From a virus (lineage: Duplodnaviria > Heunggongvirae > Uroviricota > Caudoviricetes), in the IMG/VR virus record IMGVR_UViG_2684622670_000024, positions 1 to 5,474 of that record: a stretch of 5,474 bases of DNA. One strand, given 5' to 3'. The notes below the pieces were generated by a model. The model was not told where the DNA came from. It worked only from the letters and a program-made list of their open reading frames with translations, and did no database searches. Shown in pieces: positions 1-5,474 of the stretch; position 1 is the first letter of the stretch; every line of letters starts with the position of its first letter. Position numbers and translations under genes: made by a program.

Positions 1-417
1 GATTCACATAACCCACTGATTTTTGTCAGTTAAAAACAAATTTACACGTAGCAATTTATCAAAAGTGATACACCGAATGATATACGGATCGATACACAGC
101 GCCACAATCTCAAAAAAGCACCAGCACAATTAGAAGGCCGCGAGTATACAACATCAGAAACAGGAGAGGGCAAAGCACGTAATAATTTTCGTTTTTCACA
201 AACGCAAAAATTTGGCGAGGCTGGCGGTCCCGGCAACATGAAGCTACATAGATTTTGATCCCCTGCATGGTGATGATGCCCATACAGGGCTATTTCATTT
301 CAACGGAACCAGTATGACGAACATGATCGCACCTTCTCCCGAAAACGGTGCGACCTCCATAGAGGAAATGCCTATTCAGATCCCCGGTGATTTTCACCAT
401 TCAGAATCTGGAGGGTG

Positions 418-433
418 AGTTTTCCAGTTTTCC
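418..433 (+). repeat. Tandem direct repeat AGTTTTCC x2, with related GTTTYC motifs at 582-589, 728-736 and 793-802
   Basis: AGTTTTCC at 418-425 and 426-433. GGTTTCCG (582-589), GGTTTCCCC (728-736) and GGTTTCTTCC (793-802) each lie beside an IHF-consensus site. Confidence 0.4.
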
Positions 434-453
434 CCAATGGGGGATTCTGGAAC

Positions 454-466
454 AATCAACGGGTTA
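454..466 (+). promoter_or_regulatory. IHF core-consensus match (AATCAACGGGTTA), site D
   Basis: Exact fit to WATCARNNNNTTR. The 13-mer is identical to site B except for the first base; it lacks the upstream CGAAAA tract. Confidence 0.4.
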
Positions 467-587
467 CGCCTTACCAGCAAAAAAGCACATCAACTGTAAC
501 GGAAATCGTTATGGCTGCTGGTGGGCCAAATCATCATTACGGTGATGCAGCTATGTAGACGTTCCGGTCTCCTCAAATCGAGGTTTC

Positions 588-606
588 CGAAAATATCAGT
601 GAGTTA
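588..606 (+). promoter_or_regulatory. IHF core-consensus match with upstream A-tract (CGAAAATATCAGTGAGTTA), site A
   Basis: TATCAGTGAGTTA fits WATCARNNNNTTR (R=G); preceded by the CGAAAA tract shared with sites B and C. Confidence 0.45.
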
Positions 607-628
607 GCGATTAAGCTGGCGAGTAATT

Positions 629-651
629 AAACTACGAAAATTTCGTAGTTT
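629..651. repeat. Perfect 23-bp palindrome AAACTACGAAA-A-TTTCGTAGTTT (11-1-11)
   Basis: Arms 629-639 and 641-651 are exact reverse complements. AT-rich; shares CGAAAAT with the IHF-site flank. Looks like a dimeric-protein operator rather than a terminator (no GC-rich stem or U-tract). Confidence 0.6.
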
Positions 652-653
652 GT

Positions 654-672
654 GACTATCTGAAAGATAGTC
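654..672. repeat. Perfect inverted repeat GACTATC-TGAAA-GATAGTC (7-5-7)
   Basis: Arms 654-660 and 666-672 are exact reverse complements; it lies 2 bp from the 23-bp palindrome. Confidence 0.55.
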
Positions 673-703
673 GGTTGATCCGGCCTCAGCCGTTGGCTGT
701 TCC

Positions 704-722
704 CGAAAATATCAACGGGTTA
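704..722 (+). promoter_or_regulatory. IHF core-consensus match with upstream A-tract (CGAAAATATCAACGGGTTA), site B
   Basis: TATCAACGGGTTA is an exact fit to WATCAANNNNTTR; the A-rich 5' flank resembles high-affinity IHF sites. Flanked by the inverted CCCG...CGGG. Confidence 0.5.
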
Positions 723-757
723 GGCTGGTTTCCCCGATGTTCGCCGCTGGCGAATTT

Positions 758-776
758 CGAAAATATCAACCAGTTA
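758..776 (+). promoter_or_regulatory. IHF core-consensus match with upstream A-tract (CGAAAATATCAACCAGTTA), site C
   Basis: TATCAACCAGTTA is an exact fit; it overlaps the 8-bp palindrome TTTCGAAA (755-762) and the stop codon of the 96-aa ORF. Confidence 0.5.
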
Positions 777-1064
777 CCGCCGTAACCGTTCCGGTTTCTT
801 CCAGTGGTAAGTATTTTTCGCGCTCTCCCTCCGTTGCTGAGAACGGCGACGACATGCCAGCAACTCGAGAACTCTGGTTCGTATGTTGCGCATATCCACG
901 CCGTTAAGCTCGATACCGTCACGGCGCATCACCTCAGCCACTACACGCGCGTAATTTTCGGCTATCACGCTGTCCGGCTGCGTGGCCTGTTCGTCATGCT
1001 GCTGGCTGATTCCGGTAACGCGGCGGATTATTTTTAGTAGTTCGGTTTCGCTCATTCTCGTCAT
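774..1064 (-). CDS. Hypothetical protein, translationally coupled to terL; function unknown
   Basis: 96 aa (MTRMSETELLKIIRRVTGISQQHDEQ...RRRSQQRRESAKNTYHWKKPERLRR). ATG at 1062-1064 overlaps the TerL stop (ATGA). Same strand as the operon, helical-looking body with a strongly basic C-terminal tail. I do not recognise a family. Its stop codon (774-776) coincides with the TTA of an IHF-consensus site. Confidence 0.5.
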   Translation of the reverse strand: MTRMSETELLKIIRRVTGISQQHDEQATQPDSVIAENYARVVAEVMRRDGIELNGVDMRNIRTRVLELLACRRRSQQRRESAKNTYHWKKPERLRR

Positions 1065-2722
1065 ACCCCATCAAACGCCGCAAGCCGCTCTTTGTGGCTG
1101 TCGCTTATATCAAATGCAAATTCCTCATGCTCTGCCTGGAATGTGCCAAACGCCATCAGCGCCGCAACGCTCGGATCTATCTTGTTGGATGATTTTTTCT
1201 TGTTCGGCTTGATATTGGCGTTCGCGTCACTCTGCATCACAACATTACTCATTGACCAGGCCAGCACCGGATCACCACGATGCACAATCACCTTCCGGTT
1301 AACAAAAACTTCGAACGATTTCGCCGCCGGACTGAAACGAAGGTATGTTTGCGGGAACGGCTCCACCTCAAATCCTGCGCCCTGTAGCTGCGTCCTCAGG
1401 TGCGTGGCGTTCCATGTATCGAAGCCCACCAGTCTGATATTGAAATTCTCTGCATCCGCCATGATGTCATCGCGGATACGGTCATAATCAATGCAGTCAC
1501 CCGGTGTTGTGCGTATCCAGCCCGCCTTTGCCCACTGGCGATAGATGGCGCGGTTTTTATTGGCGGGGTTCTGTAGCTGAAATTCCGGCAGATAGTGACG
1601 GGAAACCAGCATAATCTTTTTACCGACCGGAAAGGCATAGCACACGCTGGAAATATCGCTGGTTGATGATAAGTCCAGCCCCGCGTAGCACTCCTGCCCG
1701 TATAAATCCGCCTCCGCGAACGTTCCGGCGCACTCCGCCCATGCACCGTTACCCATCCACGGCGTAGCCCCCTGACACCAGATATTGAATCGCTTGGTGA
1801 GCATTTCCACCCACTGCGACGGAATACCCCGCGCTTTCTGGATGGTTGAGGCCAGTTTTTCACGATCGACGGAAACATCGATATTGGGATTCGCCTTTAT
1901 CCACATCGCCGGATCGTCAACCTCGCTTTCATCATCCAGCTCGTAAATAAGCACGAACATGGATTCGTTCACCTCTTCACCATCCAGTATCTGGCAGCAA
2001 TAGTCGTAGTGTTGTTTACAGGCTGAAACAACGTTGCTCCCCGATGTGGTGATGGCAAATAATAACCCCTCCGGACGCGCCCCCATTCCCAGTTCAAGCG
2101 CGGAATAAACCCCGTTGTCAGGGTGCAGGTGATATTCATCCACAATGGCGAGACTCGGGTTTGTCCCCTCAATGGTTGCCGCTTTTGCTGCCAGTGGCTT
2201 TAACAGGCTGTTGGTTTTCGGGTGTATCACCTTGTGCGCCTGAATATTTACCCGCTTTCGTAACGGTCGGGATAAAAGGCACATCTGACGCGCATCATCA
2301 AACACGATCCGCGCCTGATCACGACTCACGGCGGCGGTGTAAATATCCTGCTGCCCGTGTTCCATAACCAGAAACCAGTTAGCCAGGATAGCGGCGACCG
2401 TGGATTTGGCATTTTTTCGCGGTACTTCAATGAATGCGCTGGTGTATTTGCGCCGTCCGGTGGCCTTAACCTTAAAGCCCAGGATGCAGGCAAAGGCGAA
2501 CTGCTGCCACGGCTCCAGCTCAATGGGGCTACCGCGCATTGCGCCTTTTACGTGCGGACACACCCTGGAAAAGGCAATAAACCGCTCCACGACCTCCGGA
2601 TCGAACGTGTAAAGGGGGTTTTCAAGGTCAGAAAAATACCGTTTAACGGCCTGTTTCAGTCGTTTACAGGCCGTAATTTTGCCGTTTTTTACGCCTTCTG
2701 CGTACTCATGCCAGGCGGTCAA
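1061..2722 (-). CDS. terL: Terminase large subunit (ATPase + nuclease)
   Basis: 553 aa. Deviant Walker A (EVPRKNAKST), Walker B (LAIVDEYH, hydrophobic run + DE), and a C-terminal RNase-H-like nuclease region with acidic residues in GLDLSSTSD, VGFDTWNA and KIDPSVAALMA. The only in-frame start candidate after the upstream stop (TAA 2765-2767) is TTG at 2720-2722, preceded by a strong SD (GAGGAAGAGGA) and lying 17 nt inside the 3' end of terS. Stop TGA 1061-1063 overlaps the ATG of the next ORF. Confidence 0.9.
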   Translation of the reverse strand: MTAWHEYAEGVKNGKITACKRLKQAVKRYFSDLENPLYTFDPEVVERFIAFSRVCPHVKGAMRGSPIELEPWQQFAFACILGFKVKATGRRKYTSAFIEVPRKNAKSTVAAILANWFLVMEHGQQDIYTAAVSRDQARIVFDDARQMCLLSRPLRKRVNIQAHKVIHPKTNSLLKPLAAKAATIEGTNPSLAIVDEYHLHPDNGVYSALELGMGARPEGLLFAITTSGSNVVSACKQHYDYCCQILDGEEVNESMFVLIYELDDESEVDDPAMWIKANPNIDVSVDREKLASTIQKARGIPSQWVEMLTKRFNIWCQGATPWMGNGAWAECAGTFAEADLYGQECYAGLDLSSTSDISSVCYAFPVGKKIMLVSRHYLPEFQLQNPANKNRAIYRQWAKAGWIRTTPGDCIDYDRIRDDIMADAENFNIRLVGFDTWNATHLRTQLQGAGFEVEPFPQTYLRFSPAAKSFEVFVNRKVIVHRGDPVLAWSMSNVVMQSDANANIKPNKKKSSNKIDPSVAALMAFGTFQAEHEEFAFDISDSHKERLAAFDGV

Positions 2723-3062
2723 GCTCGTCCTCTTCCTCTGTTTCCGGTGGATTTCTGCGGCGGCTTACCGGGTCAAAACCCAGCAAAGAAGCCATTTTGA
2801 TCATTATTCTTTCTGCGTCAGCCTTTGCGCTCAGGGCGGGGTTTCTGCTCTCGCTGCCCTGACTGTTAACAATGCTGAACCCGCGCGTCGCAAGGTCTTC
2901 GACGGCTTTGCGGTATATAGAGTAGTTAACGCAATACAGTTCCAGATTGCTCCAGTCGGCGGGGGTAAGGTCTTCCCGCCCGGAAAGCTGGCGCGATTTT
3001 TCCTTCCACTGCCTGACCGCGATTTCATCCAGGTAAGCGGGGGCTTTTGGTGGTCTTGCCAT
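2706..3062 (-). CDS. terS: Terminase small subunit, P27-family-like (start placed at the internal ATG 3060-3062; the six-frame ORF extends to an ATG at 3201-3203)
   Basis: From the internal Met the product is 118 aa beginning MARPPKAPAYLDEIAVRQWKE..., which matches the M-x-(G)RPPK N-terminus and size typical of P27-family small terminases. The 47-aa upstream extension (MFSQSLVRPSEGVGEVFRTKPPLPDTDRLLKFLCTGIFLKIIGRKKN) is not protein-like to my eye, but the ATG at 3201-3203 has a better SD (GAGGT, 6-nt spacing) than the ATG at 3060-3062. Acidic C-terminal tail ...PETEEEDELDRLA. Stop TGA at 2706-2708. Confidence 0.7.
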   Translation of the reverse strand: MARPPKAPAYLDEIAVRQWKEKSRQLSGREDLTPADWSNLELYCVNYSIYRKAVEDLATRGFSIVNSQGSESRNPALSAKADAERIMIKMASLLGFDPVSRRRNPPETEEEDELDRLA

Positions 3063-3350
3063 GTTCTTTTTTCGCCCAATTATTTTCAAAAAAATTCCCG
3101 TGCACAAAAATTTGAGGAGGCGGTCGGTGTCCGGCAGGGGCGGTTTCGTCCTGAAAACCTCCCCCACCCCCTCTGACGGCCTCACCAGCGATTGCGAAAA
3201 CATTCCATGACCTCGCGGTCACGGTCGGTTAATCGCTTCGCTGTGGTGCGTTCTGTGCGCTCTGTCCTGTTGGCTTTGTGCCCTGTCTCCTGTGTCTTCC
3301 ATAAGTCACGCTGCCTTATCAGTCCACGTATCAGCCTGTTTTGCTCCTGT
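3063..3350 (-). promoter_or_regulatory. Structured HNH-terS intergenic region; candidate cos / terminase-recognition region
   Basis: About 288 bp non-coding if terS starts at 3062. Contains a CTGT-rich block (eight CTGT in 3241-3350; ACAG(G) on the coding strand), an imperfect dyad GACC-TCGC-GGTC (3209-3220) flanked by inverted AGCGATT (3187-3193) / AATCGCT (3231-3237), and a C5-A-C5 tract (3161-3171). In HK97-like phages cos lies between the HNH gene and terS. Confidence 0.4.
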
Positions 3351-3791
3351 TCAGTCATCATCGCCATACATCCAGTCGTTACGATGTGCCGCCCGTTCTT
3401 CCTGCTCGCGATACATGCCCGCCTTACGGTTCGCTTTCGTGGCTGGATCTTCCCGTGTCGTCTTACGGTTGTGGCACGTCTGGCACAATGCCTGGTGGTT
3501 CCACTCAGGCCAGAAGAGAACATCACCGCCGCCATTGATGGGAATGATGTGATCCACCACAAGAGCTGGCGTATAAATACCCTTAGCCAGACAACGCACG
3601 CATAACGGATTTTTTTTCAGGTACAGGGCGCGGTATTTGTCCCACAGTCGGGAATACCCACGTGCGCGGCGGTGTCCCCGTCTGGCATCCTCTGCACGCC
3701 ATGCAGCCCGCCTGTGCTCTTCACACTTGCCGGACTTCACGCGCTTATTACAGCCCGGCTCAGTGCATCGCCTTAATGGTTGCCATGGCAT
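3351..3791 (-). CDS. HNH endonuclease, terminase-associated type
   Basis: 146 aa; N-terminal Cys cluster (RCTEPGCNKRV...GKCEEH) and a classic HNH core (VVDHIIPINGGGD ... WNHQALCQTCHNRKT). It sits immediately upstream of the small terminase, the arrangement known for HNH proteins that assist cos-cleaving terminases in HK97-like phages. Possible SD GGGGGTG about 7 nt upstream of the ATG. Confidence 0.88.
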   Translation of the reverse strand: MPWQPLRRCTEPGCNKRVKSGKCEEHRRAAWRAEDARRGHRRARGYSRLWDKYRALYLKKNPLCVRCLAKGIYTPALVVDHIIPINGGGDVLFWPEWNHQALCQTCHNRKTTREDPATKANRKAGMYREQEERAAHRNDWMYGDDD

Positions 3792-4087
3792 CAGTACACC
3801 CCCACATCACGATAAACCGACCAGAGCGCGGAAATCGTCAGGGGAATTTCTTTTGTATCGGTATCGCCAAGCGTTGTCCGGTACTCGTACAGTTGCGAGA
3901 TATACATCAGGCAACCAATTTTTATTGCAGGGGTAAATTCCAGGCCGTCATCAAAACGCCTGCCAATATGCTTCTGGCATACCTCCAGCGCCGCGCTTAT
4001 GTATGCCTGAATCAGTGTGTCTTCTGTGTTACCATCTATGCGGCAGTGAAGTTTGGCCTCTTCCAGGGTTATTTTTTCTGCTGTCAT
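3791..4087 (-). CDS. Phage gp6-like head-tail connector protein
   Basis: 98 aa; N-terminal ...ITLEEAKLHCRIDGNTEDTLIQAYISAALEVCQKHIGR... fits the gp6-like connector pattern (L-E-x-A-K-x-H-x-R-I-D, then D/E-D-x-L-I-x-x-Y-I-x-A-A). ATG 4085-4087 overlaps the upstream stop; stop TGA 3791-3793 shares one base with the HNH ATG (3789-3791; TGATG junction on the coding strand). Confidence 0.78.
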   Translation of the reverse strand: MTAEKITLEEAKLHCRIDGNTEDTLIQAYISAALEVCQKHIGRRFDDGLEFTPAIKIGCLMYISQLYEYRTTLGDTDTKEIPLTISALWSVYRDVGVY

Positions 4088-4422
4088 TTTTCTGTACCCA
4101 CCTTTGCCAGAATTTCCAGCCGGGTTCTTTTCGCATCAGGTAAGGGGATCCCGATGATATTAAGCGTGCTCCCGGCAAAAGCGCCGGTAAGCACTTTCAG
4201 GCGACTGGCGGCGGATATGTCGCCACGATAGCGAACCCATACCCGAATCGTTGCAGGTGCGGTTTCTGCGCCTGCGGTCAGCAATTCCCGTCCGCTGATC
4301 CCCTTGACCTCTGCCCAGATGGTTTCCCCTTCCGTCCATATCTGCTGGATCGCACCTGACGGCAGGCGCTGTGTGGTAAATGTCATAATCGTCACCCGGT
4401 CCCGCATCTTTCCGGCTATCAT
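4084..4422 (-). CDS. Phage head-closure / head-tail adaptor protein (head-tail joining family)
   Basis: 112 aa; N-terminal MxxGKMRDRVTI... is the signature opening of head-tail joining/head-closure proteins as I recall them. ATG at 4420-4422 overlaps the portal stop (ATGA arrangement); its own stop TGA at 4084-4086 overlaps the next ATG (4085-4087). Confidence 0.75.
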   Translation of the reverse strand: MIAGKMRDRVTIMTFTTQRLPSGAIQQIWTEGETIWAEVKGISGRELLTAGAETAPATIRVWVRYRGDISAASRLKVLTGAFAGSTLNIIGIPLPDAKRTRLEILAKVGTEK

Positions 4423-5474
4423 TCGTCACCGCCCTTACTGTTCTTGCTGATTGTCACTTCCTGCTTCCATGCCTGGCTGAACTCGTCACCACCTTCACGC
4501 GGCGGCATCCCCTCACGCTCACGGGCTTCGTTCGGATTCATGATCCCGTTCTTAATCCCTTTCTCATACGTGGCGTAACGTTCGGTAGGGGTGGCGCGCA
4601 GTAAATCGGCTGAATCAAACTCAACCAGATAACGGGTACCAGGTACGGGAGAAGCCATCAGCAAAGCAGCCTTGATTTGCTGTTCGAAGTTCGCCAGCCA
4701 CGGGCGCATTGTCATGGTCAGAAACGCGCGGCTTGCCTCACTGAAATTGCTGTAGGTGCTGTTGCTGTATTCCTGAAGAAAAATCGGCGACACGTTGAAC
4801 ATACGAGCAATGTCTTCAATGGAGAAGCGACGGGAGGCCAGCCATTCCGCATCCTGGTTACTCATCCCCAGTTGCTTGTAATCCATGCCCCCTTCAAGGA
4901 TTGGCGTTTTTCCGGCATTTTTCGCCCCCTTATAGCGTTCCAGAGCATCTAATGCCTGTTTACCTTTCACGCCGTCCAGCCATTCGCCTGACGTGATAAT
5001 CCCTGCCGCCATCATGCCATCTTTCATAATGCTGGCTCCGTGACGCTGTTGAGCAAGGCCAAGCCCAAGTGCCTCACGGCAAATCGTGACAGGGGAGCGC
5101 CCCAGAAAGCCATCATCCGAGGCATAGCGGAGATGCAGAACTTCTTCCTGTAAATACGTGCGCACCGTTCCTGTATAGGGTTCGGTGATGGTATAGCGGT
5201 ATTTGTGTGCGCCTGTGCGTTCCGGTACAACACAACCCGGTGCATAAGGATGAAGTGATTTTGGCTGACCGTCCCGCCCCCACTCAATAACCGCATAGGC
5301 GTTACCGTTCAGCAGGCAGTGACGCATCATTGTGCGTTTAAACTGGTAAGGTGTCTGGCATGAATTTGGCTGCTCATTCAGCAGAATATCTACCGGGTGA
5401 CTGTCCAGCCATTCCCGCGCCTCCCTGCCCTTGTCATTACGTACCAGATACAGATAACACGGCATCGTGGCCAC
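4419..5474 (-). CDS. Phage portal protein (HK97-family-like), 5'-partial; the ORF runs off the right edge of the window, so the true N-terminus is not in view
   Basis: 351 aa visible. Central and C-terminal segments (e.g. ...DAEWLASRRFSIEDIARMFNVSPIFLQEYSNSTYSNFSEASRAFLTMTMRPWLANFEQQI... and ...RYLVEFDSADLLRATPTERYATYEKGIKNGIMNPNEAREREGMPP...) match what I recall of the conserved core and C-terminal region of HK97-type portal proteins. Stop TGA at 4419-4421 overlaps the next gene's ATG (4420-4422). The first codon in the window is GTG, which is not the real start. Confidence 0.82.
   Translation of the reverse strand: MATMPCYLYLVRNDKGREAREWLDSHPVDILLNEQPNSCQTPYQFKRTMMRHCLLNGNAYAVIEWGRDGQPKSLHPYAPGCVVPERTGAHKYRYTITEPYTGTVRTYLQEEVLHLRYASDDGFLGRSPVTICREALGLGLAQQRHGASIMKDGMMAAGIITSGEWLDGVKGKQALDALERYKGAKNAGKTPILEGGMDYKQLGMSNQDAEWLASRRFSIEDIARMFNVSPIFLQEYSNSTYSNFSEASRAFLTMTMRPWLANFEQQIKAALLMASPVPGTRYLVEFDSADLLRATPTERYATYEKGIKNGIMNPNEAREREGMPPREGGDEFSQAWKQEVTISKNSKGGDE

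Follow-up and report, generated by a model that had tools for sequence, protein, structure and literature searches.

What are several closely spaced, co-oriented consensus sites for integration host factor (IHF) doing in non-coding DNA beyond the packaging genes of a tailed-phage-like element? The question is raised by the stretch of DNA analysed here (the window), the 5,474 nt at positions 1 to 5,474 of IMG/VR virus record IMGVR_UViG_2684622670_000024, in which a first-pass annotation had noticed four same-strand matches to WATCARNNNNTTR and had taken them, for preference, as an attachment-site arm or element boundary, with a replication origin as the alternative. All four were found where it had placed them on the + strand (454-466, 594-606, 710-722 and 764-776), and the spacings of 140, 116 and 54 that it gave are correct. 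Its view that the cluster is non-random also holds, with five matches in the 5474-nt window against 0.32 expected and none of 200 shuffles reaching five; the fifth match, at 9-21 on the - strand, had escaped it. The answer that we favour, tentatively and at somewhat less than an even chance, is that the four clustered boxes belong to a satellite-specific extragenic repeat which resembles BIME-1 (bacterial interspersed mosaic element 1) of Escherichia coli and would bind host IHF at the 3' end of a late operon. On this reading the array is not part of an intasome, an origin or a cos site.

The repeated unit is larger than the consensus match. It is 45-48 nt long and consists of a hairpin, variable in sequence and fixed in position, followed by a box of the form YCGAAAATATCA-N4-GTTA; the hairpins differ from copy to copy (CCCCAATGGGG, CCTCAAATCGAGG, CAGCCGTTGGCTG and TTCGCCGCTGGCGAA), and each ends 3-5 nt before its box. 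A 19-nt direct repeat in three copies had been described earlier, and CGAAAATATCA-N4-GTTA does occur exactly three times (588-606, 704-722 and 758-776), but the true repeat is the longer, hairpin-containing one, present as a 45-nt family at 423-467, 563-607, 679-723 and 733-777. A profile hidden Markov model of the unit, run with nhmmer, gave significant matches only at 422-469, 561-609, 677-724 and 734-780 (E values of 7e-7 to 1e-11), with no other significant match in the ~135 kb of window, complete islands and chromosomal flanks that was searched, the remaining chromosome not being included.

All four units lie on the + strand. Unit 1 (422-469, E 6.7e-7) has a nested hairpin, CCAG..CTGG around CCCC-AAT-GGGG, at about 424-450 and a degenerate box, GGAACAATCAACGGGTTA, at 449-466 with its IHF-consensus core at 454-466. 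In unit 2 (561-609, E 1.1e-11) the hairpin CCTC-AAATC-GAGG at 571-583 is followed by TTTC and by the box CGAAAATATCAGTGAGTTA at 588-606 (core 594-606), and in unit 3 (677-724, E 2.1e-9) the hairpin CAGCC-GTT-GGCTG at 687-699 is followed by TTCC and by the box CGAAAATATCAACGGGTTA at 704-722 (core 710-722). Unit 4 (734-780, E 1e-7) carries the hairpin TTCGCC-GCT-GGCGAA at 740-754, then TTT, and the box CGAAAATATCAACCAGTTA at 758-776 (core 764-776), whose final TTA at 774-776 is the TAA stop codon of a 94-aa open reading frame (ORF) on the opposite strand. Because of this overlap the non-coding stretch spans only 1-773.

To see what is conserved in the unit, IMG/VR was scanned with the box pattern, which gave 119 loci; together with the window and six E. 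coli regions these form the 126 loci analysed. They supplied 102 distinct units from 65 loci, and 50 of these units were taken into the alignment. There, the TCA and TA of the box are invariant, G44 and T45 are nearly so, and spacer (4 nt) and hairpin vary freely in sequence. Perfect stems of 5 bp or more stand at the fixed position in 50% of the 102 units, compared with 7% (maximum 14%) of chimeras made from the 5' arm of one unit and the 3' arm of a different unit, in a register-aware count; covariation scored in a single register on the MAFFT alignment was diluted, since 3-nt and 4-nt loops use two registers. Because stems persist above the chimera level with 10 different stem sequences, it is the pairing and not the sequence that is maintained. 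The stems are of 4-7 bp with loops of 3-5 nt, they are nearly all Watson-Crick, and their mismatches have no strand bias (4 vs 6); the hairpin may act at the level of RNA, of single-stranded DNA or of a palindrome in DNA.

The first of these possibilities leads to a rival account, in which the array is an RNA-level element, either the 3' untranslated region of the late operon (- strand) or an antisense RNA (+ strand), and hairpins and single-stranded boxes serve together as exonuclease barriers, RNase E or chaperone sites, or small-RNA precursors. The covarying arms fit such a role, as do the position of the array directly after the last stop codon, the AU-rich box adjoining the hairpin on the - strand and strong predicted structure on both strands, with region 415-800 folding much better than shuffles (z -6.8 and -5.3). 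Two further hairpins lie between units 2 and 3. One, at 629-651 (AAACTACGAAA-A-TTTCGTAGTTT), has an A-run before it and a T-run after it and looks like a bidirectional terminator; other tails conserve it, and in locus L004 an A:T pair has become G:C by a compensatory change; the second, at 654-672 (GACTATC-TGAAA-GATAGTC), is conserved in related tails. The covariance models of Rfam 15, however, gave no match at E<=1 on either strand, a tRNA/tmRNA scan was negative, and a sigma-70-like promoter scan of 1-1200 predicted none. The stems also have no G:U asymmetry between strands, the two conserved blocks of the box around a free 4-nt spacer look like protein-DNA half-sites, and in the diverged tail of locus L248 the surviving positions are exactly those of the IHF consensus. 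We therefore consider a function in RNA unlikely, while still giving it some weight.

Two other explanations of the units were tried and rejected. A terminator role for the unit hairpins fails on their T-tracts, which are weak on the + strand and absent from the - strand. As coding sequence the boxes would read ENINGL/ENINQL, or ENI(N/S)xL in general, and the window array has stops in all frames. Of 124 box spacings in 43 distinct tails (IMG/VR loci L127-L245), 73 are divisible by 3 (48, 54, 96, 99, 135 and 177), which we judged not significant as the spacing classes are not independent.

The box is where the argument for IHF lies. A canonical site is WATCAR-N4-TTR with an A-tract in its 5' half and with two kink steps, usually AA, at a distance of 9 bp (PMC1874591). 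In the units with R=A, the GAAAA of the box puts an AA step upstream of TCAA at this distance and adds a run of four A, elements that may correspond to the accessory ones of canonical sites. The strict consensus is matched by 78 of the 102 units, including all four in the window, though the collecting pattern itself contains most of that consensus. A (nearly) invariant TCA/GTTA with a variable N4 is the half-site pattern expected for IHF. The units are confined to island tails in the sequences examined. Consensus matches occur there at 4.5 per kb in the unit orientation and 0.28 in the opposite one, against 0.06 per kb per strand elsewhere in the same loci, densities that are inflated by ascertainment because the loci were collected with a pattern containing the motif, and across ~510 kb of related loci outside the tails they stand at background density. 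Co-orientation is strict (147 vs 9). The most diverged array, that of L248, whose 94-aa ORF homologue is 49% identical, still has five co-oriented units that keep the hairpin and WATCAA-N4-TTA with the other box positions changed; since what survives is the IHF consensus, a conserved host factor fits better than a co-evolving island protein.

Several features weigh against IHF binding or against the role that we attach to it. The tract of four A adjoins WATCA and does not lie farther 5' as in lambda H', the TCAG units are without the second AA step, and some degenerate units carry TTCAG or CTCAG in place of ATCAR. Units of the E. coli type are also conserved beyond the minimal IHF consensus (the G before TTA, an A for the last R, and the C of YCG). 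Neighbouring units spaced by 48 or 54 bp do not keep helical phase, the unit hairpins have no clear role in IHF binding, and most of them lack a U-tract on the late-operon strand. The ascertainment inflation of the densities counts on this side too.

The variability of the array raises the question of whether it is under selection. Tails hold 1-7 units, commonly spaced by 48, 54, 96, 99, 116, 135, 140, 154 or 177 nt, and the 96%-identical island of locus L002 (strain Br_190) has ~295 extra bp with a fifth unit, at 15723-16017, where the window has 723-733, so that array length varies by indel between very close relatives. Such differences in copy number and in spacing between close relatives, along with units that are mosaic and degenerate, would suit a selfish or neutral micro-repeat amplifying and decaying in a dispensable tail, a process also suggested to underlie BIME expansion, or stuffer DNA that adjusts the island to capsid size, the box then being inherited rather than selected. 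Yet stems and N4 are randomised while TCA/GTTA is (nearly) invariant and the arms stay complementary, which implies purifying selection, and drift of this kind sits poorly with strict co-orientation; we regard a neutral repeat as quite unlikely.

The stretch that separates unit 1 from unit 2 contains a Chi site (GCTGGTGG) at 517-524 (+), and Chi sites are present in other island tails as well (L004 8782, L005 8855 and L006 8361). A link to protection from RecBCD was considered and dropped, Chi being frequent on both strands across the islands, with about 11 in the ~15-kb L002 island.

E. coli chromosomes align to window 1-1100 at 95.9-97.7% identity, and in these matches the window forms the end nearest hpt of an island of ~15 kb between hpt and gcd. 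Annotation of the L002 island, together with Pfam searches of the window ORFs, gives the island an integrase, helix-turn-helix regulators, an Icd-like protein, a RepA-family helicase, SSB, an HK97-type capsid, protease, portal, connector, HNH, TerS and TerL, and no tail genes. By this gene content the island is a capsid-forming phage-inducible chromosomal island (cf-PICI), a class described in bioRxiv 10.1101/2022.09.08.507074. Of 5426 complete E. coli genomes, 1483 have a match to some part of window 1-1100 and 1132 to the array region 420-780, the latter at 1-4 places per genome. Among INPHARED phages there was no DNA match to window 1-1100 and one weak protein match for the 94-aa ORF.

The window genes are all on the - strand and comprise portal (partial), two head-tail connector genes, HNH (3351-3791), TerS (2709-3062), TerL (1064-2722; Pfam TerL_ATPase and TerL_nuclease) and the 94-aa ORF. 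The gap between HNH and terS had been put forward in the first-pass annotation as a cos candidate. A 61-aa ORF annotated at L002 18478-18663, which corresponds to about window 3185-3370 on the - strand, partly fills this gap (3063-3370), and the non-coding remainder, about 3063-3184, is G+C-rich. For the array itself a cos role is excluded by position, since terS starts at 3062 and the array ends at 780, and by its sharing across terminase types.

The region had also been called ORF-poor. For 1-773 this is right, the stretch being non-coding, but between terL and the array sits a conserved ORF of 94 aa (774-1058, - strand; phrog_1561), the last gene of the island. Its family is narrow and enterobacterial, with 39 representatives at 50% clustering, and shares a basic C-terminus, Y.WKKPERLRR; the structural model has three predicted helices. 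Searches against Pfam, NCBIfam and PADLOC gave no match, the model had no significant structural neighbour and no recognisable DNA-binding family or fold, and a single-protein query against genome contigs found nothing. The DNA encoding its C-terminus (WKKPERLRR*) resembles the 5' flank of the repeat unit, with 782-801 80% identical to 555-574. Box 4 supplies the stop codon with its TTA, so that the constraints on the protein overlap here with those on the repeat.

Could the array then be a binding site for this or another island protein, in an autoregulatory, centromere-like or packaging-accessory capacity? The two are linked: in 65 of the 126 loci the array follows immediately on the stop of a 93-94-aa ORF, their relative orientation never varying, and the last box overlaps that stop. 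The protein is also small, helical and basic, with weak homeodomain-like sequence matches (E about 0.1). On the other side, arrays occur without the ORF (L239, L170 and L245) and ORF homologues occur with one unit or none (L252, L253 and L212; the L253 tail has one unit), the box core is unchanged at 49% ORF identity and equal to the IHF consensus, and the ORF belongs to no recognisable DNA-binding family. An island protein as the ligand is accordingly unlikely in our estimate, somewhat more so than a function in RNA.

Wherever related islands were inspected the order was the same, a phrog_1561 ORF followed by a repeat-bearing non-coding tail and the att site. Around this constant end the islands differ. 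They are integrated at hpt, at phoQ/roxA, on the clpS side, at a tRNA gene next to mug/rpoD and at thiM; they replicate with a RepA-helicase or a DUF927-primase module; and they package with HNH/TerS/TerL or with MCP (major capsid protein)/decoration/Nu1-like modules. Hosts include E. coli, Salmonella enterica and Citrobacter portucalensis, and the carriers are enterobacterial PICIs of both the capsid-forming and the classical kind. The array thus recurs at the end of all related islands inspected despite differing integrase, replication and packaging modules, and several units are identical between hpt-site and phoQ/roxA-site islands whose integrases are 48% identical. A two-box pattern run on genome contigs was too degenerate to add to this distribution, the matches listed being chance hits in unrelated phyla. 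Searches of the PICI and cf-PICI literature and searches with sequence strings found no description of the array, which appears undescribed, and a literature search for IHF chromatin immunoprecipitation in EDL933 found no data for the region, nor any such data set from a strain that bears an island.

This distribution bears directly on the proposal of an origin, in which the units would be the iterons of a cis-replication region furnished with IHF sites. Direct repeats with IHF-type sites in non-coding DNA are indeed found in several plasmid origins. The array, however, lies at the island end opposite the replication genes, which have no comparable repeats next to them, and identical units accompany unrelated initiators (RepA-family helicase and DUF927 primase), with irregular spacing and variable hairpin sequences. 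Because the units occur with both replication modules and far from them, the origin that had been offered as an alternative is unsupported, and we hold it to be very improbable.

An attachment-site arm, the first-pass annotation's own preference, was judged against the actual recombination site. The empty hpt-gcd site of K-12 was compared with both island junctions, and this alignment with an element-free chromosome located the insertion junction and the att core, a 22-bp direct repeat, TTACTTCTACA[A/G]TATGTTTCAT, identical with hpt coding nt 1-22. Its copies lie at L002 14979-15000 and 30282-30303. One ends immediately left of window base 1, so that an element boundary is near, as had been suspected; the other, the matching repeat that had been sought at the far end of the island, lies 170 bp upstream of int. 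The fifth IHF-consensus match, AATCAGTGGGTTA at 9-21 (-), is 9 bp from the core, has no unit hairpin and matches the unit profile weakly (E 4.6); it is likely to be the core-proximal IHF site of the true att arm. Further along, at 67-97 (+), the direct repeats GATACAC / GATATAC / GATACAC with 12-bp spacing are candidate arm-type sites for the integrase. The int side has a similar triplet, GATATAC / GATACAC / GATACTA (the last a one-mismatch variant), at L002 30137-30167, at a distance of 115-145 bp from its core copy; an IHF site with one mismatch separates the two. The two arms hold 5 of the 13 GATAYAC matches in 31 kb. As delimited by these motifs, the true att arm is about window 1-100, and the recombination site is accounted for from about -150 to +100.

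The array has the IHF consensus, the direct repeats and the terminal position in an integrase-bearing island that would be looked for in an attP arm whose boxes serve as IHF or arm-type sites of an intasome. But it begins, at 422, some 420 bp from the core, hence not within about 250 bp of it, and extends to 780; in the phoQ/roxA-site island, with a 36-bp att repeat, it lies 346-740 bp away. Better candidates stand less than 100 bp from the core here and at 115-145 bp on the int side, and the array box was not found in the int-side arm. Near-identical units also accompany a 48%-identical integrase at a different site. The arm is unsupported as an explanation of the array; its chance of being right is, in our estimate, slight.

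Some further observations concern the att site. Integration regenerates the start of hpt, and since the hpt-side core carries an A at a position that is G in K-12 and in the int-side copy, a Thr4Ile change is predicted in Hpt. The native 5' untranslated and promoter region of hpt is replaced by window 1-60, with only TTAAAAACAAAT common to it and K-12. In L253, at the tRNA gene next to mug/rpoD, and in L256 from Citrobacter, an IHF-consensus match, TATCAAGGGGTTA, lies ~10 nt past the 3' end of the tRNA and, by analogy of position, parallels the putative core-proximal site at window 9-21. For PICIs that target hpt, these data amount to a prediction of the minimal att site, namely a core within codons 1-7 of hpt, an IHF site close to that core and triplets of GATAYAC in the arms.

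If the array is instead a BIME-1-like repeat, as we prefer, host IHF would bind each box and bend the DNA into a compact nucleoprotein array, which would sit at the 3' end of a late transcription unit of ~10 kb. The palindromes and the A/T-flanked hairpins at 629-672 could act in the transcript as 3'-end barriers or terminators, and the whole might insulate the strongly expressed late operon from the host gene when integrated, and from attP and int in the excised circle, a role of the kind proposed for BIME-1 in E. coli. BIME-1 linkers frequently hold an IHF site, and elements of the REP (repetitive extragenic palindromic)/BIME type have been connected with IHF binding, with termination, with the stabilisation of mRNA and with topological insulation (PMC3333891). 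We infer IHF occupancy and an insulating or terminal role from the anatomy and distribution of the units. If IHF does bind, the islands would add a new case in which satellites enlist an architectural protein of the host, and insulation, termination or IHF titration could be studied on a natural array of multiple IHF sites.

Binding could also serve a different end. With 4-7 predicted high-affinity sites per replicating copy, an induced satellite might present thousands of sites per cell and titrate host IHF as a decoy. Lambda-like helpers, in which cosB and recombination are IHF-dependent, would be crippled, and the satellite would be spared by an IHF-independent cos. The cos of classical PICIs lies directly upstream of rpp and has been described as lacking the IHF I1 site (PMC9026076). 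A decoy of this sort, which we rate as improbable, would be satellite interference with the helper that is DNA-encoded and protein-free.

How the array relates to known systems follows from these comparisons. With iteron origins, such as plasmid or satellite ori and the ori/crr of P4, it shares direct repeats that point the same way in non-coding DNA and are in some cases accompanied by IHF sites; iterons, however, are near-identical, regularly phased and initiator-specific, whereas the array is irregular, has variable hairpins and does not track the type of initiator. Type III antitoxin and CRISPR repeats are likewise tandem hairpin-containing units, but they are near-identical with a constant period, in contrast to array stems that differ and spacings that run from 43 to 177 nt or more, and unlike those repeat-RNA arrays the present one has neither an associated nuclease gene nor an Rfam match. 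Lambda cosB, with I1 between R sites, resembles the array in that an IHF site occurs in the packaging-related part of a cos element; unlike cosB, the array is separated by more than 2.2 kb from the HNH-terS gap and is common to islands with different terminase systems.

The H1, H2 and H' sites of lambda attP are closer in detail, having in common with the array WATCAR-N4-TTR, an A-rich 5' flank and a place near the boundary of an integrase-bearing element. In lambda, the attP IHF sites alternate with arm-type sites and are no more than about 160 bp away from the core. The hpt-island att layout resembles this arrangement, with a core, a core-proximal IHF site and arm-type sites in what would be P and P' arms, so a lambda-like attP role fits window 9-21 and 67-97 but not the array at 420-780, which is independent of integrase type.

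The nearest parallel is BIME-1, from which the array nevertheless differs in several respects. Its hairpins span 13-17 nt compared with 30-40 nt in BIME-1/REP; the GTAG foot that is characteristic of REP precedes only some of its units; and its units are direct repeats (hairpin-box-hairpin-box), whereas BIME-1 is an inverted REP pair around one linker. REP and BIME elements are dispersed over the chromosome in hundreds of copies, while array units were found only in island tails within the ~135 kb scanned, and the two sequences, which were not aligned, have no obvious resemblance. Because unit size, arrangement and distribution differ and the sequences are without obvious resemblance, the array is not a member of the BIME family. 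What it has in common with BIME-1 is the combination of hairpin-forming palindromes with an IHF site, an extragenic position and a copy number that varies between strains. The RIB/RIP class of such elements, reportedly described in 1993 by Boccard and Prentki and by Oppenheim and colleagues, is said to lie at the 3' ends of transcription units, as the array does.

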